Source: Thermoanaerobaculia bacterium
GTDB taxonomy: Bacteria; Acidobacteriota; Thermoanaerobaculia; Gp7-AA8
Assembly: GCA_035569395.1 (NCBI GenBank)
Contig: DATMNC010000062.1
Coordinates: forward strand, 30,591 to 94,590
Direction: 5' to 3'
Length of the DNA stretch: 64,000 bases
Under the pieces are notes generated by a model that was not told the origin of the DNA, made no database searches, and saw nothing but the letters and a program-made list of their open reading frames with translations. Positions 1,829 through 23,576 of the stretch are shown here, piece after piece; position 1 is the stretch's first letter, and every line of letters begins with the position of its first letter. The position numbers and the translations under genes were made by a program.

Positions 1829-2185
1829 ATGGACGAGACGCTCCAGGCTGAGATTCGCTCTCTCTTCATTCAGGCTCAGATTCGCTGTCTTGAAGCACAA
1901 CTACGGGCTCTTCGCTCACTCGGATCTGTCGCTTTTGAGTCCTCGGCACCTCGGCGCGGACGCCCGCCTTCCGGTAAGTCACAGGTCGATATTGTTTTTG
2001 ATATTTTACGTACGGCTGGTTCTCCGCTTCACATCGACGAGATTCTCAAGCTCGCCGCCCGCAAGCGTAAACCTCTCGATCGCGAGTCGGTCGTTTCGGC
2101 CATCACCAAGTACATCAATCGACACCAACGCTTCGTCCGCACCGCCCCCAACACCTTCGCCATCCTCGAGCAGGAGGCGCCATGA
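1829..2185 (+). CDS. IS accessory protein (small, probable DNA-binding helper), translationally coupled to the transposase
   Basis: 118-aa ORF whose stop overlaps the downstream transposase start (ATGA at 2182); lies inside the IR-bounded element. Confidence 0.45.
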   Translation: MDETLQAEIRSLFIQAQIRCLEAQLRALRSLGSVAFESSAPRRGRPPSGKSQVDIVFDILRTAGSPLHIDEILKLAARKRKPLDRESVVSAITKYINRHQRFVRTAPNTFAILEQEAP

Positions 2186-3555
2186 GCCTGCTCGCACGCT
2201 ATCGCTCGCTGCTGGAAGCTACCAGTGGTCTGTTCGCGCAACAGAGAACAGCTCGCCGCTCGGTGGAGTTCTCTCTGGCTATGCCGGCTTCCGTGGGCCG
2301 GCACACCATCACCAATGCCTTGTCGGTTCTGGGCCGCACCCAGGTGGACTGGAGTGGCGCGTACAAGTTCTTCAGCCGCTCACGCTGGAACCAGGCTGGT
2401 CGGTTTCGGCCTGTCTTCGAACATTACCTCCAGATGTTCCCCTCAGGCCCGATCGCCATCGCCGTGGACGACACCAAGGCGCATAAGGTAGGAAAGAAGA
2501 TCCGTTCTGCCTTCTGGCAGCGCGATCCGCTCTCGCCTCCCTTCCATGCCAATCTGATCTGGGCTCAGCGCTTTCTCCACTTCTCGCTGATCTTTCCGCT
2601 CCATCGAAACGGCCTGGTTCCGGCTCGCTCGCTTCCGGTTCGCTTTGAGGATGCTCCGGCCCTCAAAAAGCCAGGCATCCGAGGCTCGCTCCAGCAGTGG
2701 GAGGCGTATCGACAGCAGGTCAAACAGACCAATCTTTCGACCCAAGCGCGCACCACGGCCGAGGAAATCCGTAAGCACCTCGATCAGCTTGGTCAAGCCC
2801 ATCGCTCACTGCTGCTACCCGTGGACGGAAGCTTCTGCAATCGGCGCTTCTTTCGTGAACCGCTCGATCGCACCTACATCCTGGCCCGTGCTCGCAAGGA
2901 TGCCCGTCTTTGCTTTCCCGCCCCCGCCGGATCGCGACGCCGCTATGACGCGAACCTATTTACTCCCGAGGCTGTCCGCAAGGACGACTCCATTCCCTGG
3001 CACAAGGCCACGGTCTTTTTTGGCGGAAAGCGTCGTAAGGTCCGATTCAAGGTCGTCAACAAAGTTCTGTGGCGGCGAGGCTCGGGGCTCCGAACCCTTC
3101 GACTGATCGTCCTGGCACCAACTCCCTACCGGCTCTCCCCAAATGCTTCGATCAACTACCGCGATCCGGCCTACCTGCTCACCGACGAGTTGGCCTCTTC
3201 GCTGACCTCACTTCTCCAGAGCTACTTCGACCGTTGGCAGATCGAAGTCAATCATCGTGAAATCAAGCAGCACTTCGGCGCTGGCCAAGCCCAAGTTCGG
3301 GCCCTTTTATCTGTGCCGCGGGTTCCCGCCTTTGTGGTCTCCTGCTACAGCCTTCTCCATCTGGCCGGGCTTCTCGAGTTCGGCTCCTCACGAATCGACC
3401 GATATTCGCCTCTGCCTATATGGAGGCGAGCTTCGACGCGCCCTTCCATCGCCGATCTGCTCCGTCTGCTACGAACAGATCTGAACGAAACGCGAGATTC
3501 AACTTCCGGACTTCAAATCCCTGCGGCCAATCTCGTTCTCTCTCCCGCTGCCTGA
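2182..3555 (+). CDS. DDE transposase, IS4-family type (DDE_Tnp_1-like)
   Basis: 457 aa; C-terminal Y-x2-R-x3-E-x6-K signature (YFDRWQIEVNHREIKQ) typical of IS4-family transposases; sits inside terminal inverted repeats. Confidence 0.7.
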   Translation: MSLLARYRSLLEATSGLFAQQRTARRSVEFSLAMPASVGRHTITNALSVLGRTQVDWSGAYKFFSRSRWNQAGRFRPVFEHYLQMFPSGPIAIAVDDTKAHKVGKKIRSAFWQRDPLSPPFHANLIWAQRFLHFSLIFPLHRNGLVPARSLPVRFEDAPALKKPGIRGSLQQWEAYRQQVKQTNLSTQARTTAEEIRKHLDQLGQAHRSLLLPVDGSFCNRRFFREPLDRTYILARARKDARLCFPAPAGSRRRYDANLFTPEAVRKDDSIPWHKATVFFGGKRRKVRFKVVNKVLWRRGSGLRTLRLIVLAPTPYRLSPNASINYRDPAYLLTDELASSLTSLLQSYFDRWQIEVNHREIKQHFGAGQAQVRALLSVPRVPAFVVSCYSLLHLAGLLEFGSSRIDRYSPLPIWRRASTRPSIADLLRLLRTDLNETRDSTSGLQIPAANLVLSPAA

Positions 3556-3779: not shown

Positions 3780-4373
3780 TCAGGTTCGATTGAAGAGCAT
3801 AAACAGAACGAAGACCACGATCATGATGGCAATCCACAGCAGAAAGACGCGAATCGGCCGCAGCGAAGGTTTGGCCGAGGATGGTGCCGCGGCCGCGAGA
3901 CGGCGAAAGCCTTCCCACGACTCGTCGTCCGCGAAGAACTCCCGGGGAAGAATGCGAATGCTGCTGGCCGACTGGTAGATCGTGACCAGGTTCGGAGTCA
4001 CCACGACCTTGTGCATCAGCGCCCACGGCAGATCGGCCCGGCCGTGCGCCGACTCCATGCGGACCCCCTGCTCGTCGGCTTCCCCCGAGACCTGGTCCGC
4101 CAGGAGCCGATCGGTGGCGAACGCCCGGCTTACGGTGATCCTCGGCATGATCAACAACATCACCCCGAACAATCCCAGAAACAACGGCGCCCCCCAGGAG
4201 ACAGGAACCGCAATGTGGGCGGAGGAAAGGGCGATGACTGACGCCAGGATCATTCCCCAGGCGACCGTCCGGATCGATCGGCCGGTGACACCGATCGCGC
4301 GACGGTAGAGCTCCGGCGTGAGTGTCCCTTCGAAACGGATCATCCGTGCATTCTGCACGAATCCGCTCCCCAC
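3780..4373 (-). CDS. hypothetical membrane protein (two TM segments, bacterial PH/YcxB-like architecture)
   Basis: 197-aa ORF with TM stretches ILASVIALSSAHIAV and VFLLWIAIMIVVFVLFMLF; no confident family assignment. Confidence 0.4.
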   Translation of the reverse strand: MGSGFVQNARMIRFEGTLTPELYRRAIGVTGRSIRTVAWGMILASVIALSSAHIAVPVSWGAPLFLGLFGVMLLIMPRITVSRAFATDRLLADQVSGEADEQGVRMESAHGRADLPWALMHKVVVTPNLVTIYQSASSIRILPREFFADDESWEGFRRLAAAAPSSAKPSLRPIRVFLLWIAIMIVVFVLFMLFNRT

Positions 4374-4446
4374 GAGGGCACGGTTGGTGACGGAAGCGCG
4401 AAGAAGCCCTCTCCTCCGTCACCGGAACCACTTCCCTCGGAGGCGG

Positions 4447-4553
4447 AACCAAAATTCAATCCGTCAGAACTAAAATTCAATCCGTCAGAACCAAAAATCA
4501 ATCCGTCATTGCCAAAAATCAATCCGTCATTGCCAAAATTCAATCCGTCAGAA
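4447..4553. repeat. tandem repeat, 5 copies of a ~21-bp unit (yAAAAwTCAATCCGTCAgaac/ttgc)
   Basis: Direct reading: taaaattcaatccgtcagaac / caaaaatcaatccgtcattgc x2 / caaaattcaatccgtcagaac; AT-rich relative to the surrounding sequence. Confidence 0.8.
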
Positions 4554-4583
4554 CAATATATTATTCTGTCACAGCGAATTTCG

Positions 4584-4726
4584 TTTCCGGCGGAGCGCCC
4601 GGCCGCTCCACGGGAAACGAAATTCAATCCTGCAGAATGATTTTTGTTTCCGAAGGAGCGCCGGCCCGTTCCGGCAGAAACAAAATTCGTTCCGACGGAA
4701 TGATTTTTCGCTCCTTCAGAATGATA
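4584..4726. repeat. two direct ~63-bp repeats plus partial third (gtttccg[g/a]..gagcgcc..ggc...gaaac.aaattc.ttcc..c.gaatgatttt)
   Basis: 4584-4644 and 4646-4708 align with few mismatches; partial third copy follows. Confidence 0.6.
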
Positions 4727-5018
4727 TAATGTTCTGTTGTTGCCAAAATCATTTAGTCGGCAACCGACACCAATATTCGTCACCGACCTCGGGATAGACG
4801 ATGTCCCCGGAGACCCCTGAGAAGATTCGAAAGAACCTCCCGCTTTTCGGGATCAGAAAGGGCTCGAAGTCGCCAGGATGCGGCGGTCATCTCCCGAGTA
4901 TGCAGGGACTTACGTCGTGTTGCAGTTATGCACGACCCCCGCCGGCGAAGCCGGCGTGAGGCCTCGACCGCCCAAAACCGGCTGCCCTCCCGAGCCACGC
5001 GGCACTCATCTGCGGATA

Positions 5019-5068
5019 AGAAACATCCATCCGCAGATTGCGCAGATGTACGCAGATGAAACCTACTC
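5019..5068. repeat. CGCAGAT motif cluster: inverted repeat catctgcggat...atccgcagatg followed by direct cgcagatg repeats
   Basis: catctgcggataagaaacatccatccgcagattgcgcagatgtacgcagatg; same ATCCGCAGAT motif recurs at 13554-13637 and 11110-11350. Confidence 0.5.
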
Positions 5069-5116
5069 CGGCTCGCTGTACATCCTGCCCTGAGCGAGCG
5101 AAGCGAGTCGAATGGG

Positions 5117-5410
5117 CTACTTTCGGTGACGCCAGTATCCGGGCCGCCTGCTTTGATGCGCGACCGCCGTGATGAAGACATGGTCATCCCGTACCCGATA
5201 CAGCACTGTGTACGGGAAGCGATCCAGGACGAAACGGCGTTCGCCTCGCATGCCCCGCGGCCATCGCAATGGCGCTTCCCTGATACTACGGACGGCATGA
5301 TCGATCTCGAGTGCGAAGGCCTGTGCGGCTACCTCGCTCCGTTCGCTGTACCAAGCCGTGGCTTCCGTGAGCTCTTGATCGGCTTCCGGGTGAAACCTGA
5401 TCCGCATCAT
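5117..5410 (-). CDS. parE: type II toxin, ParE/RelE family (plasmid stabilisation system protein)
   Basis: MMRIRFHPEADQELTEATAWY...FVLDRFPYTVLYRVRDDHVFITAVAHQSR matches ParE/RelE toxin pattern; start overlaps the upstream antitoxin stop. Confidence 0.7.
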   Translation of the reverse strand: MMRIRFHPEADQELTEATAWYSERSEVAAQAFALEIDHAVRSIREAPLRWPRGMRGERRFVLDRFPYTVLYRVRDDHVFITAVAHQSRRPGYWRHRK

Positions 5411-5643
5411 CCCCGACGGAACAATCGCGCGCGAACCTCTTCCCACGGGATGGTCTGAACGGCGCCCGACTCGATCTCCTGCCAGCGACGCTCGGCCTCG
5501 ACGGCCCAAATCTCTTCGACCTCGGGATCAGGAGGCGGTTCCAGGCTTTCGATTAGCAGACCGGCAAGCGTCGCCCGATCGCCCTCGGAGAGCTCCAACG
5601 CGTCACGAAACATGGTCTGTAGGTCGCGTGCCATGGACGACAT
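5407..5643 (-). CDS. antitoxin, putative addiction-module component (TIGR02574-like)
   Basis: MSSMARDLQTMFRDALELSEGDRATLAGLLIESLEPPPDPEVEEIWAVEAERRWQEIESGAV resembles the addiction-module antidote family that pairs with RelE/ParE; start chosen at MSSMARDL inside the longer ORF. Confidence 0.65.
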   Translation of the reverse strand: MSSMARDLQTMFRDALELSEGDRATLAGLLIESLEPPPDPEVEEIWAVEAERRWQEIESGAVQTIPWEEVRARLFRRG

Positions 5644-5699
5644 TCTACCGCGCACCGCTCGTTTTCTCCGCGCCTCCGCGTGAACCGTCTCCCCGTGAC

Positions 5700-5882
5700 C
5701 TACTCCGGCCCGCTGTATGTCGCATCCATCATCCACCGCATCAGCGCGGCGGTGAAGCCGGGGACGGCGAATTCGAGGTGCGGTATCTCCTTCACCGAAA
5801 GCGGCGAGAAGAGATACCACTCGACGACGTCGTTGAACGACACCATCTCTTCGTCGTGTGCTCCCGCATTGGTCATCTCCAC
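5700..5882 (-). CDS. possible small ribbon-helix-helix-like protein divergent from the XRE gene. True start uncertain: an ATG start would overlap the XRE gene, the alternative is a GTG start
   Basis: Segment RRLTIPIELPEFAIRALEHRVEMTNAGAHDEEMVSFNDVVEWYL resembles an RHH beta-strand plus helices; could be a spurious antisense ORF in high-GC DNA. Confidence 0.25.
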   Translation of the reverse strand: MEMTNAGAHDEEMVSFNDVVEWYLFSPLSVKEIPHLEFAVPGFTAALMRWMMDATYSGPE

Positions 5883-6011
5883 CCGATGCTCCAGCGCCCG
5901 GATCGCAAACTCCGGCAGCTCGATCGGAATGGTCAGCCGCCGGGTCAAAGCCTTCGCGGCGTGCGTGGTGAGGTTGCGGTGCGCGTCATGTTTGCCTCTC
6001 CGTGCTCTAGC

Positions 6012-6050
6012 ACACTTCAGTGTGTAGCTACTCGGCACACAATAGTGTGC
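6012..6050. promoter_or_regulatory. two adjacent operator-like palindromes (CACACT-tc-AGTGTG and GCACAC-aata-GTGTGC) in the divergent XRE promoter region
   Basis: Perfect 6-bp inverted repeats sharing a CACAC half-site, immediately upstream of the XRE start at 6055/6061. Confidence 0.45.
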
Positions 6051-6060
6051 AATTGTGCGG

Positions 6061-6321
6061 ATGTCAAGAGCACGCCGGACCGCCGAGATCATCTTTGGCG
6101 AACATCTGCGGGCGCTGCGCGTGTCAGCCGGGCTATCCCAGGAAGCGCTCGCCGAGAAGTCTGGCCTCCACCGCAACTACATCGGCCACATCGAGCGCGG
6201 CGAGAAGACGGCGAGTTTGGACGTGTTGGTGAGGCTCTCCGCCGCGTTCGAGCTATCACTCCCCGAACTGCTAGAAGGTTTCGACTCCCGTACTGTGCGT
6301 ATGCTTTCTGGCAACCGGTGA
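6061..6321 (+). CDS. XRE-family helix-turn-helix transcriptional regulator (Cro/C1-type)
   Basis: LSQEALAEKSGLHRNYIGHIERGEKTASLDVLVRLSAAF is a canonical HTH_XRE; ATG at 6061 (track ORF begins at GTG 6055). Confidence 0.8.
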   Translation: MSRARRTAEIIFGEHLRALRVSAGLSQEALAEKSGLHRNYIGHIERGEKTASLDVLVRLSAAFELSLPELLEGFDSRTVRMLSGNR

Positions 6322-6463
6322 GGGTGACTCCTCACAATCAACGACTAGCGCTGCCGATTGTCGCGAGAGATTTTACTTTTGCGAAGTGGCTCTGCATCCT
6401 CACTAAAATGCAGGTCGTCCAAGGTTAACAAGCATAAAGTAGGCCTCCGCGCCTTTTGAGCCT

Positions 6464-6994
6464 ATGCTTGGAGTGCTGTACACTCGCGCCATGGCTTCTG
6501 ACATACTTCATCTTCTTTTCGGTGCCGGTCTAGCAACCGCAGGCGGTGCGGTCATGGAACTGTGGCGCGAAGGTCGTGGCAATCACAAGGAAGTAGTCTT
6601 ATTGCAGCGAGAGATCGCCGCAACCTCACAACTCTGTGATGTCTTGCTCGCCTCTCGCGAGGATCTGTCGGTCACGGTGTATCTTCAGCAATGGAAGTCG
6701 TTCGCAACACAAGGAGCCGCAGCGAGTCGTGCGTGGTTGCGTGTGATACCTGATCGAGACGCTCGCGACCACGTTCTTCGCGTGTACCTCATGACCTCCA
6801 GCCTCGTTTCAACTTTTGAAGAGTTTGCAGCTCGAGAGGGCACGTTTAAGGCAGCAAAGGACCGCGATGGCTTCTATCATTGGATCGCAGAGCACCGTAA
6901 GTTGGCGATAGAAGCCGCAACAATCTTAAAGAACGATGCGGAATCCGCCACTCGACTTCTTCAGGGCTATGTTGATCGGCCGCTCCTTCTGTGA
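6464..6994 (+). CDS. hypothetical protein (176 aa), lower-GC island; convergent partner of the TIR-domain gene
   Basis: Clean ORF in a ~52% GC segment; hydrophobic N-terminal segment; no recognisable domain. Confidence 0.5.
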   Translation: MLGVLYTRAMASDILHLLFGAGLATAGGAVMELWREGRGNHKEVVLLQREIAATSQLCDVLLASREDLSVTVYLQQWKSFATQGAAASRAWLRVIPDRDARDHVLRVYLMTSSLVSTFEEFAAREGTFKAAKDRDGFYHWIAEHRKLAIEAATILKNDAESATRLLQGYVDRPLLL

Positions 6995-7132
6995 CGAATG
7001 GACGTTTTCACACGTCCTCTCGAGTGTTCGCGCGAAGTATTGCCCTTCATCAACGGTACTACGCAGAATATGCATTTGCGTTGCTTAGAAGGGGCTGTTT
7101 GACACTTCCTCGAAGTGTAGCCACAAAGAGAA

Positions 7133-7789
7133 TCAGTCCTTGCGAAGGCTCCAGTGTCCTGGCCCGATAGAAAAAATCATGGTGACCTCCTTCACACCAG
7201 GCATTTCCCGAAGGACCTTGATCTGGGCACGTATGTCCATACCAGCAATGTCCACGAGAAGATCAGATTTGCCCAACAGAGTAGAAGTTGAAACGAGGCC
7301 AGGCAGCGTCGCTATCTGTTGTAGGAGCTGATCGAAAAGGCCGGGCTCCGCGCGTATCATCCAAGAGGAGTACTCGACATCCCTCACTGGTTGTTCAAAT
7401 AGCTGACGCAATTGACGAACACCGTCATCCCATGAAGGAAACAGATTCACCCGGTTATATTCGGACAGTTCCCGATGAGTCGACTCACACTCGTCGAGCC
7501 GAACTGGGATAATAAACGGTTCATTCGCTGGAAGCTCAGTAGCCACATCGAGCGCTTGGCGAATCTCCGCGTTGAGATACCCTCGGCGACTTACAGACGA
7601 CGAAGACAGCAATGCGATGAAGTACTTGCTTCTGCGGATCGCTGAAGCTATTGCTACCTTCCAGCGCTCGCCCGGACGAAGAGAATCCCGATCGAACCAC
7701 ACGTCGACGGCAGACTTGAGGTCATTGCGAAGCCGAGCCGCTGCCTCGGCATCCTCACGGCCGTAACTCATGAAGATTTGAACCGTCAT
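7133..7789 (-). CDS. TIR-domain protein with unknown C-terminal domain (~115 aa)
   Basis: N-terminal IFMSYGREDAEAAARLRNDLKSAVDVWFDRDSLRPGERWKVAIASAIRRSKYFIALLSSSSVSRRGYLNAEIRQAL...PFIIPVRLDECE matches bacterial TIR (TIR_2) motifs (F-x-S-Y, W-D, S-x-W-C/V..E); start taken at MTVQIF; lower-GC island. Confidence 0.75.
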   Translation of the reverse strand: MTVQIFMSYGREDAEAAARLRNDLKSAVDVWFDRDSLRPGERWKVAIASAIRRSKYFIALLSSSSVSRRGYLNAEIRQALDVATELPANEPFIIPVRLDECESTHRELSEYNRVNLFPSWDDGVRQLRQLFEQPVRDVEYSSWMIRAEPGLFDQLLQQIATLPGLVSTSTLLGKSDLLVDIAGMDIRAQIKVLREMPGVKEVTMIFSIGPGHWSLRKD

Positions 7790-7859
7790 GTGGTGTAAGC
7801 ACACCCGATAGCGCAGCACTCGGGCCGCGCTATCCACTTATGGCCGTCAAACTAGCGGC

Positions 7860-10691
<2,832 letters not shown>

Positions 10692-21206: not shown

Positions 21207-21608
21207 TCACGCGGCCGTCTTCAGGAACTTGAGAATCTTTTCCGCCGTCCGTTGCGGGTCCTGGGCCTCTTTGATGAACGGCAGATCTCGCAGGATCCAT
21301 GGATATGGGAACGGCGTCTGCGACGGAGCGCGGCGCTCGACCGTGATGACCCGGTTCTCGAAGCGCGGCGTCGTCATCGCGAATTCGAATGCCTTTTTCA
21401 AGTCCGGAGAACCGCTCGTTTTGGCAGAGAGCACGAGAATCATCGTATCTGCACGATCGAGAGCCCTGGCTCCCGACCGCAGCCAATTCGTTCCAGGTTC
21501 GACGTCGCTGGCGTCGAGCCACGCATCAATACCGGCGCCGCGGAGGGAGTTGGCAATCTCCGCGGCGAAATCGCGATCGGCGTCGCCGTGACTGATGAAT
21601 ACGAACAT
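21207..21608 (-). CDS. small standalone TIR-like (flavodoxin-fold, TIR_2/DUF1863-like) protein
   Basis: MFVFISHGDADRDFAAEIANSLRGAGIDAWLDASDVEPGTNW...ADTMILVLSAKTSGSPDLKKAFEFA matches TIR-like motifs; 12-bp gap to AOR and overlapping junction with moaD-like gene. Confidence 0.6.
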   Translation of the reverse strand: MFVFISHGDADRDFAAEIANSLRGAGIDAWLDASDVEPGTNWLRSGARALDRADTMILVLSAKTSGSPDLKKAFEFAMTTPRFENRVITVERRAPSQTPFPYPWILRDLPFIKEAQDPQRTAEKILKFLKTAA

Positions 21609-21620
21609 AGCCCCTTTATT

Positions 21621-23576
21621 CTACGCCGTCAGCACCGTCTCCAGCTCCTCACGCCACTCCGGCTTCGGCATCCCTTCCTCGGTCAGATTCGAGACCTCGT
21701 AGAAGCGGGAGAGCATCTTGTCGAACTCGCCGCGGTCGATTTTTTCGCCTTTGTAGGGGCCGACGCCGATCGCTTCCTCGAACCAGCGTTTGGGGAGGGT
21801 GTCGTCGGCGCGGGTGACGCCGAGTCTGGCGTTGATGAGACGCTCGACACCCATCACGTTCAGACCGATGCCGTCGATGGCCTGCTTCGTCAGCTCGATA
21901 CCGGTGACGTTGGCTACCTGATCGGCAAACTCCTCGTAGCCCGGGAGCGAGGGGGAATTGAAGAGCTTCGTGGTGAAACGGCACATGCCGACCGAATCGC
22001 CCACGGCGTAGATGTTCTCGCAGCGGCGGACGGCGATCTCTTTCCCCTCGTAGCTGTTCGGCTCCGCGGAGACTGGTCCGCCGTATAGCTCGGCCTTGAA
22101 ATCGGGGGAGTCGTTGATCTTGGCGTTGATCTCCAGCGTCACCCGGTTGCGAAGGTGGTCCATGCCGCGCGTGGCCACGGCCAGGCCGAGGGCGAAGGCT
22201 TTGAGGATGCGGGCATCGTGCGGATCGCTTTGCGTGAGACCCTTCACGGCCATCAGGTAGTCGAGCGACTCGACCGGATACTTGCCGTTTGCGACCGCCT
22301 GCGACGAATCGGCGATCACGTCGCCGAAACCTTCGCGCCTCGCGGTCATGAAGAGGAGCTGCTCGATGGCGTCGTAGTTGCCCCACGTCAGATCGAGCCG
22401 CGTCTCTTCGCGGGTGATGATGCCGCGCTGGTAGAGCTCCATGGCCCAGGAGATGGCCGAGCCGGAGGAGGCGGTGTCGAGTCCGAGGTCGTTGCAGATG
22501 TTGTTCAGACGCAGCACTTGCGTCACCTCGGTGATGCCGACGTTCGGACCGAACTTGCCGAGTGTCACGTACTCGGGACCGTCGCCTTTGATGTATTTGT
22601 CGGGACGGACGTTCGTATCGTTCGACATGTCATTCAACGGACGGCAGTTGACCGGGCAGGCGAAACAGCCCTCCATGCCCGGGCGGTAGGGATCGATGTT
22701 CTCGGCGTCGAGCTTGTCGGTCCAGGTCGTTTCCTGATTGTTCTTCGTCCCCATCGCGCCGAGCATGCGCGACGGTTTGTAGAGGAACGGCGTGCCGCGC
22801 TTTTTCAGGGCATTTTTCACCACCGAGGTGTTGAGGAGCTTCAACGCCACATCCCGGTTGCGGAGCTTGTGCGGGCGGGCGGTAGTGAGGTCGGCGTGGC
22901 GTCCCTGAATCAGCACTGCTTTGAGGTTGAGCGCACCCATCTTCGCGCCCGGGCCACCGCGGGCGTAGATCGCTTTCGGACCGGCCATGATCCCGGAACA
23001 GAGGACGAGGTTCTCGCCGGCGGTGGTGATGGCCGCCAGCCCATAGTCCTTCCCTTCGACACCGTGAAAGTCTTCGGCGATCTTCGCACGCAGGTCGAGG
23101 TTGTCGAGCCCGACCCATGGCGTGGCATCGACGAATTTGGGCTCATTCCCCTCGAAGTGCAGCAGCGTCCAGGCCGGCGCTTTCCCGTAGAGGACGAGGT
23201 GATCGATGCCGTTGAGCTTCATGAACGACGGGAAGTAGTCGCCGGCGTTCGAATCCATCAATACCCGCGACTCCGGCGACCACGAGGTGACGTTGCCGCG
23301 CGATGCCGAGGGCACCATCGACGTCAGGATGCCGGTGCCGAAGATGAGCGGGACGTGGGGATGAATCGGCTCGAGTGTTTCATCGAGCAGGTTGTGAAGC
23401 AGGAACATGTTTACACCGCGCCCGCCGAGGAGAGCGTTGACGACGCGAAGCGGAATCCAGGCCCGGCGCACCTCCCGCCGCTCGAGGTCGACGAAGATCG
23501 TCTCCCCCTGCGTCGGGAATTGCTGCTCGGAGGCGAGCCGGGTCAGGAGCGCGTCGACGCGCGTGTGGATCGACAT
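21621..23576 (-). CDS. aor: tungsten-containing aldehyde:ferredoxin oxidoreductase (AOR family)
   Basis: 651 aa; AOR N-terminal and catalytic domain pattern including the Cys-rich 4Fe-4S region. Confidence 0.9.
   Translation of the reverse strand: MSIHTRVDALLTRLASEQQFPTQGETIFVDLERREVRRAWIPLRVVNALLGGRGVNMFLLHNLLDETLEPIHPHVPLIFGTGILTSMVPSASRGNVTSWSPESRVLMDSNAGDYFPSFMKLNGIDHLVLYGKAPAWTLLHFEGNEPKFVDATPWVGLDNLDLRAKIAEDFHGVEGKDYGLAAITTAGENLVLCSGIMAGPKAIYARGGPGAKMGALNLKAVLIQGRHADLTTARPHKLRNRDVALKLLNTSVVKNALKKRGTPFLYKPSRMLGAMGTKNNQETTWTDKLDAENIDPYRPGMEGCFACPVNCRPLNDMSNDTNVRPDKYIKGDGPEYVTLGKFGPNVGITEVTQVLRLNNICNDLGLDTASSGSAISWAMELYQRGIITREETRLDLTWGNYDAIEQLLFMTARREGFGDVIADSSQAVANGKYPVESLDYLMAVKGLTQSDPHDARILKAFALGLAVATRGMDHLRNRVTLEINAKINDSPDFKAELYGGPVSAEPNSYEGKEIAVRRCENIYAVGDSVGMCRFTTKLFNSPSLPGYEEFADQVANVTGIELTKQAIDGIGLNVMGVERLINARLGVTRADDTLPKRWFEEAIGVGPYKGEKIDRGEFDKMLSRFYEVSNLTEEGMPKPEWREELETVLTA

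Follow-up and report, generated by a model that had tools for sequence, protein, structure and literature searches.

The low-GC segment at positions 6322 to 7859 of a 64,000-nucleotide stretch of contig DATMNC010000062.1 (Thermoanaerobaculia bacterium; the whole stretch is called the window here) is very likely the current cargo of a defense-gene hotspot in Thermoanaerobaculia, in which a gene encoding a TIR domain joined to a RAM (Lrp/AsnC ligand-binding-like) domain, TIR-RAM, and a small neighboring gene, p167, are independent cassettes. We also consider it probable that this cargo is made up of separate pieces throughout, namely, TIR-RAM as a single-gene sensor-effector, p167 as an orphan, and the relic of an HNH-like gene. 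Judging from its sequence, TIR-RAM may well be a defense NADase, a reading to which we lean with only a slight preference. An initial annotation of this DNA had proposed that the TIR gene and its neighbor form one two-gene defense module.

Eleven related loci from metagenomes and metagenome-assembled genomes share the anchors of the segment, that is, a helix-turn-helix (HTH) regulator gene with the small gene ORFx on the left and/or nrdJ on the right, and differ in the cargo between them; loci L009 to L014 were recovered by searching public contigs for the operator pattern described below. The XRE-type HTH regulator is 76 to 86% identical at the amino acid level in eight loci, and NrdJ is 89 to 98% identical in L001, L002, L003, L006, L009, and L012. 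DNA homology between the window and the sister loci stops at 6288 to 6321 and resumes at 7862, with sequences diverging directly after both anchor stop codons, and cargo GC content is 0.51 to 0.56 in all loci. Since the anchors are shared, the cargo varies, homology breaks at both stop codons, and the cargo is low in GC, we interpret the island as hotspot cargo. Loci L001 to L003, which encode the TIR-RAM homolog P0002, are syntenic with the window and carry nrdJ, TIR-RAM, an HNH-like open reading frame (ORF) of 252 to 288 amino acids (aa) on the TIR strand, the XRE gene (81% identity), and ORFx (88%). L006, which encodes a p167 homolog, is likewise syntenic, with the XRE gene (86%), p167 (76%), a convergent Trypsin_2 protein in the TIR position (PADLOC PDC-S45, E = 2e-29), and nrdJ (89%). 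Elsewhere, the slot holds a 207-aa protein with an N-terminal hydrophobic segment (L009, 1235-1858), HerA (L010; PADLOC E = 7.6e-84), a 239-aa multipass membrane protein (L011, 12062-12781) together with an MBL-fold protein (PDC-M48B, E = 4.5e-36), or a 777-aa P-loop protein with a weakly TIR/Nuc_deoxyrib_tr-like N terminus (L012 to L014; L012, 914-3247). No family could be assigned to the 207-, 239-, and 777-aa proteins, which, with the HNH-like protein (L001, 1350-2216), are candidates for undescribed defense genes. The slot between nrdJ and the HTH gene is occupied by at least seven different sets of cargo, HerA, PDC-S45-like, and PDC-M48B-like genes among them, and this combination of conserved flanks and variable, defense-enriched cargo is that of a chromosomal defense hotspot. 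The likeness to core-gene-flanked defense hotspots lies in a fixed slot between conserved genes that is filled by interchangeable low-GC defense cargo.

Base composition sets the segment apart from the rest of the window. The GC minimum of the whole 64 kb is the 1.5-kb interval beginning at 6251 (0.533, against a mean of 0.627 and a standard deviation [SD] of 0.025, or about 3.8 SD below the mean), and GC at third codon positions is 0.53 in the ORF initially called as 176 aa and 0.56 in the TIR gene versus 0.90 in the adjacent nrdJ. The low-GC island that the initial annotation placed at 6.3 to 7.85 kb therefore stands (53%), while its figure of 68% for the background is too high (about 63%; mean, 62.7%). 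Its claim of foreign cargo of the defense-island type is borne out as well, and more strongly by the hotspot than by the flanking toxin-antitoxin (TA) pair and insertion sequence (IS). A structured RNA or tRNA as integration target was considered and rejected, with no Rfam match in the first 12 kb (positions 1 to 12 kb) and no tRNA in positions 1 to 14 kb of the window. A phage or plasmid origin of the cargo was rejected as well: neither the RAM part nor p167 had relatives in IMG/VR, TIR-RAM had no match in GenBank phages, and plasmid matches to TIR-RAM reached at most the first 154 of its 218 residues, essentially the TIR part.

The N-terminal part of TIR-RAM is a TIR domain by profile, fold, and alignment. 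It matches Pfam TIR_2 (PF13676; E = 2.6e-24; 86.5 bits; cutoff, 28), has the flavodoxin-like TIR fold, and carries a glutamate, Glu75, that is invariant across 12 homologs. In a phmmer alignment to PDB 7uwg/8g83, Glu75 falls opposite the Glu in the NYEL motif of AbTir, a residue that we take to be catalytic in AbTir. The ORF is intact, and the TIR-domain protein of the initial annotation is confirmed together with the two features on which its assignment hung, the fold and the conserved glutamate. Top Foldseek matches for this domain were the SPARTA TIR-APAZ proteins (8isy and 8i87) and AbTir, and the closest relatives with solved structures are NADases that become active on assembly (the SPARTA tetramer, the TIR-STING fiber, the Cat1 filament, and the SpbK filament). 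The dN/dS ratio of TIR-RAM against L001, a comparison between lineages, is 0.12 (0.08 for the TIR domain and 0.20 for the RAM domain), and that of p167 is 0.07 to 0.10; since both are under purifying selection, we regard both as real genes.

The C-terminal extension had been described as about 115 aa long and resembling nothing recognizable. An extension is indeed present, but it is closer to 85 aa, and its fold is that of the RAM domains of Lrp/AsnC proteins. In the AlphaFold2 (AF2) model, aa 140 to 205 form the beta-alpha-beta-beta-alpha-beta arrangement of a RAM fold, of the dimeric alpha/beta-barrel type (pLDDT, 75 to 91), and Foldseek matched the domain to the Lrp/AsnC proteins 7fby, 2e1c, and 1ri7. 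A profile built from an alignment of the three known TIR-RAM C-terminal sequences, searched exhaustively over 1.84 billion representatives, returned 19 proteins at an E value of ≤1e-3. The only strong match was the cluster of TIR-RAM itself, and 17 of the 18 remote matches were AsnC_trans_reg (PF01037) proteins (best E = 2.6e-23). Aligning the profile with the remote set by hhalign gave a probability of 98.2%, a value that is partly circular in that the set was picked by the same profile. The RAM-typical motif G-x-x-D-L-L is invariant in the three-sequence alignment, and its G and D are near-invariant in the remote RAM matches. Furthermore, the RAM half evolves faster than the TIR half, as would be expected for a sensor domain: a sensor role fits both the higher dN/dS ratio (0.20 versus 0.08) and the identity to the homolog P0003, which is 32% in the RAM part versus 59% over the whole protein. 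In Lrp/AsnC proteins, RAM domains bind amino acids at subunit interfaces and drive assembly from dimers to octamers. A report on Sa-Lrp describes octamers induced by glutamine, an instance in which a RAM ligand can alter oligomeric state (PMC3584215), and an account of RAM domains portrays them as classically metabolic sensors (PMC2995911).

The fusion of these two domains is extremely rare. Proteins that span both domains form only three clusters among 5.8 billion clustered proteins, namely, that of the window, P0002 (80% identity), and P0003 (59%), and among the 1.84 billion representatives the fusion is a single 50%-identity cluster. Other matches share the TIR domain only and have different C termini (cold-shock, SspB-like, and DUF1566-like). 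PADLOC, NCBIfam, and PHROGs likewise match the TIR part only. The fusion was absent from the matches in PADLOC v2, NCBIfam, and Pfam, so that the label "undescribed" in the initial annotation holds for TIR-RAM, and a search of the available literature found no TIR domain fused to an AsnC, RAM, or ACT domain.

No neighbor is conserved across the three contexts in which TIR-RAM occurs (the window, L001 to L003, and L004), and because of this we regard it as self-contained and single-gene. When the premises about TIR and RAM domains are combined with the anatomy found, a one-protein sensor-effector is the most economical model. The N-terminal TIR domain would be an NAD+-consuming enzyme that is active only once TIR domains come together, and the C-terminal RAM domain would both sense and assemble. 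On binding a small ligand, or a peptide, during infection or stress, the RAM domain would change its oligomeric state, which would cluster the TIR domains, switch on NAD+ hydrolysis, and arrest or kill the infected cell. SpbK filaments are cited as one example of TIR activation by assembly (PMC12847820). For TIR-RAM, we infer the NADase activity, the identity of the ligand, the gating of activation by oligomerization, and the antiphage role. Gating specifically by a small molecule, which we propose by analogy with other RAM proteins, is tentative and on balance doubtful. A bolder proposal, which we consider somewhat less likely still, is that TIR-RAM is a metabolite-gated immune NADase whose amino-acid-type RAM domain senses a metabolite pool altered by infection, leading to TIR clustering and NAD+ collapse with neither a partner nor a nucleotide messenger, and that the nrdJ-HTH hotspot is a source of further undescribed defense genes (p167, the 207-aa, 239-aa, and 777-aa genes, and the HNH-like gene).

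Several described TIR systems resemble TIR-RAM in part, and the TIR-RAM model has structural matches to 9lmq, 7un8, 7qqk, and 9mud (the TIR-STING, TIR-SAVED, and Cat1 comparisons). Functionally, it resembles SpbK of Bacillus subtilis, a single-gene TIR abortive-infection protein. However, SpbK lacks a RAM domain and is clustered by a phage portal protein, whereas the expected trigger of TIR-RAM is a small ligand or peptide acting through RAM self-assembly, and no family relationship was found between the two sequences beyond the TIR domain. TIR-STING, TIR-SAVED of CBASS, and Cat1, the CARF-TIR protein of type III CRISPR systems, each join a TIR domain to a small-molecule-binding domain, and a ligand-driven filament or oligomer activates the NADase. 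In these systems, STING, SAVED, and CARF bind cyclic nucleotides made by an adjacent partner cyclase, whereas TIR-RAM has a RAM sensor and no conserved cyclase or other partner. It is not a CBASS or Pycsar TIR effector, since the SAVED_TIR match covers the TIR part only and no cyclase was found among the neighbors. TIR-RAM belongs to none of the TIR-STING, TIR-SAVED, Cat1, and SpbK systems; its sensor domain differs. Its best PADLOC match is to SPARTA TIR-APAZ (Aga_TIR-PNTD1-PNTD2, E = 1.8e-16), over profile positions 31 to 133 of 443 only, and the 218-aa protein lacks an APAZ domain, with no short Argonaute gene in the vicinity. Finally, Lrp/AsnC proteins carry the RAM domain on a winged HTH, and STS042, TTHA0845, and a 75-aa AsnC protein of Pyrococcus consist of a stand-alone RAM domain, whereas here it sits on a TIR enzyme.

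Thoeris, in which the TIR protein ThsB works with ThsA, offers another model, since it too places a TIR protein in a defense island: TIR-RAM would generate a messenger of the cyclic ADP-ribose (cADPR) type that acts on an effector encoded at another site in the genome. Signaling nucleotides are described as products that bacterial TIR proteins can make if they have the catalytic glutamate (PMC10899771), and TIR-RAM has weak ThsB-type matches (Pfam ThsB_TIR, E = 0.033; PADLOC ThsB, E = 1.9e-4). These are below cutoff, however, with 15 bits against 21.2 for ThsB_TIR and 18.7 bits against 220 for NCBIfam ThcB4. As the initial annotation had remarked of SIR2, Macro, and other known partners, no ThsA-type effector (SIR2, Macro, SLOG, or transmembrane) was found in any neighbor of the TIR gene by Pfam, PADLOC, or NCBIfam, the window neighbors scanned having no ThsA, SIR2, Macro, or SLOG match. 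Similarly, the neighbor proteins scanned in L001 had no Pfam or PADLOC match, and the flanks of L004 contain no further gene call. Defense cassettes that move through hotspots generally bring all of their parts, which we count against an effector at a distance. Altogether, we think a Thoeris-like signal generator quite unlikely.

A role outside immunity is a slimmer prospect again, whether as a metabolite-responsive, NAD-related housekeeping or regulatory protein linked to nrdJ or as a decaying passenger. In the window and in L001 to L003, TIR-RAM is the gene immediately following nrdJ, in the same orientation, and the metabolic sensing ascribed to RAM domains (PMC2995911) would suit such a role. 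Nevertheless, sister genomes carry unrelated cargo at the same position, including the HerA and PDC-type candidates, and in L004 there is no nrdJ upstream of TIR-RAM. Foreign GC content and extreme rarity speak against a housekeeping function, and purifying selection speaks against decay.

The two-gene module proposed in the initial annotation, with the TIR protein as, for example, sensor or signal generator and the 176-aa protein as membrane effector or regulator, can now be judged by co-occurrence, and we give it the least credence of all the readings weighed here. In its favor, the genes lie next to each other in the window, are both low in GC, and have no family assignment other than the TIR domain, and the hydrophobic N-terminal helix of p167 could anchor it in a membrane. 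However, among the four distinct contexts of TIR-RAM and the five of p167, the two are found together only in the window. TIR-RAM occurs without p167 in L001 to L003 and in L004, and p167 occurs without a TIR gene in L006, where a protease takes the TIR position, and in L005, L007, and L008, where neither a TIR nor a protease gene is nearby. Moreover, the genes are convergent rather than co-oriented, and they lie in separate blocks of DNA homology, a p167 cassette at 6472 to 6987 that matches L005 and L006 and a TIR cassette at 7024 to 7861 that matches L001 to L003, with the relic of the HNH-like gene between them. The genes swap independently, and the proposed pairing fails on the absence of co-occurrence elsewhere by which it was to be judged.

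p167 itself is a real but rare gene. The ORF given initially as 6464 to 6994 on the plus strand exists and is convergent with the TIR gene, but the protein has 167 rather than 176 aa. It falls into four clusters only among the 5.8e9 proteins. In the AF2 model (pLDDT, 70.6; only one of the five models was confident), the protein is all-helical, with a long hydrophobic helix at the N terminus and a four-helix bundle after it. Assignment to a known family was rejected: there was no match in Pfam, PADLOC, NCBIfam, or PHROGs, and a Foldseek search of the PDB gave none at an E value of ≤1e-3, the best (E = 0.013) being to generic four-helix bundles. Our preferred guess is an independent passenger gene with a small, possibly membrane-associated product.

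The HNH-like gene raises a different alternative, that the functional unit was TIR-RAM together with this gene and that the p167 cassette destroyed the latter, leaving the TIR gene as the orphan of a disabled system. In L001 to L003, the HNH-like ORF, which carries the pattern CxxC...H...CxxC, is intact and comes after the co-oriented TIR gene, from which it is separated by a short gap at most. The window retains about 140 nucleotides (nt) of its 5′ end, the first ~47 codons, ended by a stop codon and lying between the p167 and TIR cassettes, and DNA homology runs contiguously from the TIR gene into the relic. This truncated relic suggests that the p167 cassette replaced the HNH-like gene by recombination. 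Against a functional pair, HNH-like homologs (50 to 69% identity) occur without a TIR gene in L015, beside a phage integrase, and in L016, L017, and L018, and the 188 nt that follow the TIR-RAM gene in L004 contain no HNH-like sequence. More broadly, the available flanks of L004 (0.7 kb upstream and 0.19 kb downstream) contain no nrdJ, p167, or HNH-like sequence. The TIR-RAM ORF is also intact, although its dN/dS ratio, being an estimate between lineages, is compatible with a recent loss of function. We therefore rejected TIR-RAM and the HNH-like protein as an obligate pair, given the homologs that stand alone elsewhere, and keep the pair as a minority alternative that we consider unlikely. 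The HNH-like protein has a weak HNH_5 match (E = 0.018), which we do not use as a family assignment.

We thus favor hotspot cargo of independent pieces with TIR-RAM as a self-contained sensor-effector, and several observations weigh against this interpretation. The isolated aa 134 to 218 score 24.6 bits (E = 2.3e-5) against Pfam AsnC_trans_reg, just under the cutoff of 25.0, and NapD, a peptide-binding chaperone of the same fold type, also weakly matches the C-terminal domain (E = 5e-4). Given the subthreshold RAM match and the weak NapD match, the "ligand" could be a peptide, or the RAM domain could be a constitutive oligomerizer. In the TIR domain, the motif is Y-x-x-x-E where the aligned AbTir has W-x-x-x-E. 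TIR-RAM is known from three clusters only, mostly on contigs of 1.6 to 2.9 kb, so that neighborhood statistics are thin, and location in a hotspot is circumstantial evidence for defense. Lastly, the HNH-like relic comes right after the TIR gene in the same orientation, so that a former two-gene system may have been broken in the window genome.

TIR enzymes have a central part in the immunity of bacteria, plants, and animals, and a key question is what unites TIR domains. To our knowledge, the well-described bacterial triggers are all a nucleotide second messenger (STING, SAVED, and CARF), nucleic acid recognition (SPARTA), or a phage protein (SpbK). Fusion of TIR to RAM points to a possible fourth route, in which a small metabolite or peptide would be sensed directly by a fold that oligomerizes in response to ligand. 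If so, TIR-RAM would represent a new trigger class for TIR immunity and, at 218 residues, a minimal model for metabolite-gated NAD+ depletion. Its importance is limited by the extreme rarity of the fusion and its origin in uncultured bacteria. With its clean boundaries, the nrdJ-HTH slot is a hotspot that could be mined for new defense genes in the poorly studied phylum Acidobacteriota. Coordinates of the features discussed are collected in Table 1.

Table 1. Positions of the cargo, its anchors, and flanking features in the window
Feature	Position	Strand	Basis or remark
IS-type transposase	2182-3555	+	Closest to IS701 models; NCBIfam IS701_3, E = 6e-43, below cutoff
YcxB-like gene	3780-4373	-	ORF map
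ParE-family toxin gene	5117-5410	-	97 aa from MMRIRF; Pfam ParE_toxin, E = 1.3e-12
Antitoxin gene	5407-5634	-	75 aa from ATG 5634; Pfam Unstab_antitox, E = 6e-16; NCBIfam TIGR02574, E = 1e-10, above cutoff
ORFx, small conserved gene	5700-5996	-	Divergent from HTH gene; 84 to 94% aa identity in L001 and L009 to L014
Two operator-like palindromes, GCACAC-N4-GTGTG(C)	6010-6024, 6035-6050		25 nt start to start; ~10 nt before HTH start codon
XRE/C-protein-like HTH regulator gene	6061-6321	+	86 aa from ATG 6061; Pfam HTH_3 (PF01381), E = 7e-17; PADLOC Control_protein, E = 3e-18
Variable cargo slot (low-GC island)	6322-7859		Bounded exactly by the HTH and nrdJ stop codons
p167	6491-6994	+	Start ATG 6491 by homolog alignment and NCBI gene call; independent cassette
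Relic of HNH-like gene, 5′ end	7021-7161	-	tblastn of the L001 288-aa ORF, aa 3 to 47, 55% identity, E = 1e-8
TIR-RAM gene	7133-7789	-	218 aa; Pfam TIR_2; AF2 pLDDT 79.8
RAM (Lrp/AsnC ligand-binding-like) domain	7175-7372	-	aa 140 to 205; predicted beta-alpha-beta-beta-alpha-beta topology
TIR domain	7391-7789	-	aa 1 to 133; catalytic Glu75 codon at 7565-7567
nrdJ, B12-dependent ribonucleotide reductase	7860-10691	-	943 aa; housekeeping gene, right anchor; NCBIfam NF005122, 1454.7 bits (cutoff, 859)

The XRE regulator and its two operator palindromes were correctly recognized in the initial annotation but are not part of the cargo module to which they had been assigned. Because the regulator is conserved whatever the cargo, we consider it an anchor of the hotspot rather than a cargo-specific controller. 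It resembles the controller (C) proteins of restriction-modification (R-M) systems in its HTH type, its Control_protein match, and the two tandem palindromic boxes, akin to C-boxes, just before its own start codon. It differs from them in that no R-M genes are attached, with no restriction endonuclease or methyltransferase match beyond noise among the window neighbors in PADLOC. The sequence GCACAC-N4-GTGTG occurs at no other site in the window (0 expected from shuffles), and the palindrome arms are invariant in L001, a locus found independently of the operator pattern. The gene p167 is co-oriented with the XRE gene, 170 nt downstream in the window and 93 nt downstream in L006, and transcription from the XRE promoter may read through into p167 in both. 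A dedicated control of p167 by the regulator was rejected, since every locus has the regulator, irrespective of its cargo, and most loci have convergent cargo after it.

ORFx, on the other side of the palindromes, encodes 96 aa in the sister loci, with intact versions in L013 and L014, and has no Pfam, PADLOC, NCBIfam, or PHROG match. In the window, 1 nt is missing a few codons past the ATG (5960-5996), which puts the annotated start out of frame and could reflect a pseudogene, an assembly error, or the use of a downstream TTG start. A sigma-70-like promoter at 6039 to 6067 on the minus strand (TTGACA, 17 nt, TATTGT; 10 of 12 matches) faces ORFx. Since this promoter overlaps the second palindrome, the XRE protein could, on sequence grounds, regulate the divergent ORFx-antitoxin-ParE strand besides its own gene.

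The ParE and antitoxin genes are adjacent with a 4-nt overlap, as in a ParDE-type type II TA system, and form the left flank outside the cargo slot. Whereas the initial annotation spoke of flanking TA modules in the plural, the pair at 5117 to 5634 is the only one. A hairpin-forming REP-like element (...CATCTGCGGATAAGAAACATCCATCCGCAGATTGCGCAGATG...) at 5007 to 5063 recurs several times in the sister loci L011, L013, and L014. In L013, the antitoxin gene is in three tandem fragments separated by this element, and since it splits the gene there, the left flank of the hotspot is in flux as well. The IS, described initially as IS4 family-like and next to the island, is instead IS701 family-like and lies ~2.9 kb to the left of the interval then reported. 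A 118-aa ORF at 1829 to 2185 on the plus strand, which weakly matches HARE-HTH (E = 9e-5, below cutoff), overlaps the start of the transposase gene by 4 nt and may be an accessory ORF of the IS. Farther right, a stretch rich in AT (about 47% GC) contains a tandem repeat with a 21-nt unit at 4446 to 4554 (5.2 copies, 88% matches) followed by a 63-nt repeat at 4579 to 4708 (2.1 copies). Rfam has no match in this stretch (4446-4708), and the 147-aa ORF that overlaps it seems to exist only because of the repeats. Another TIR_2 protein, which stands alone and has 133 aa, is encoded at 21207 to 21608 on the minus strand (Pfam E = 2.4e-19; 29% identity to the N terminus of TIR-RAM), directly downstream of a 651-aa ORF at 21621 to 23576 on the same strand.

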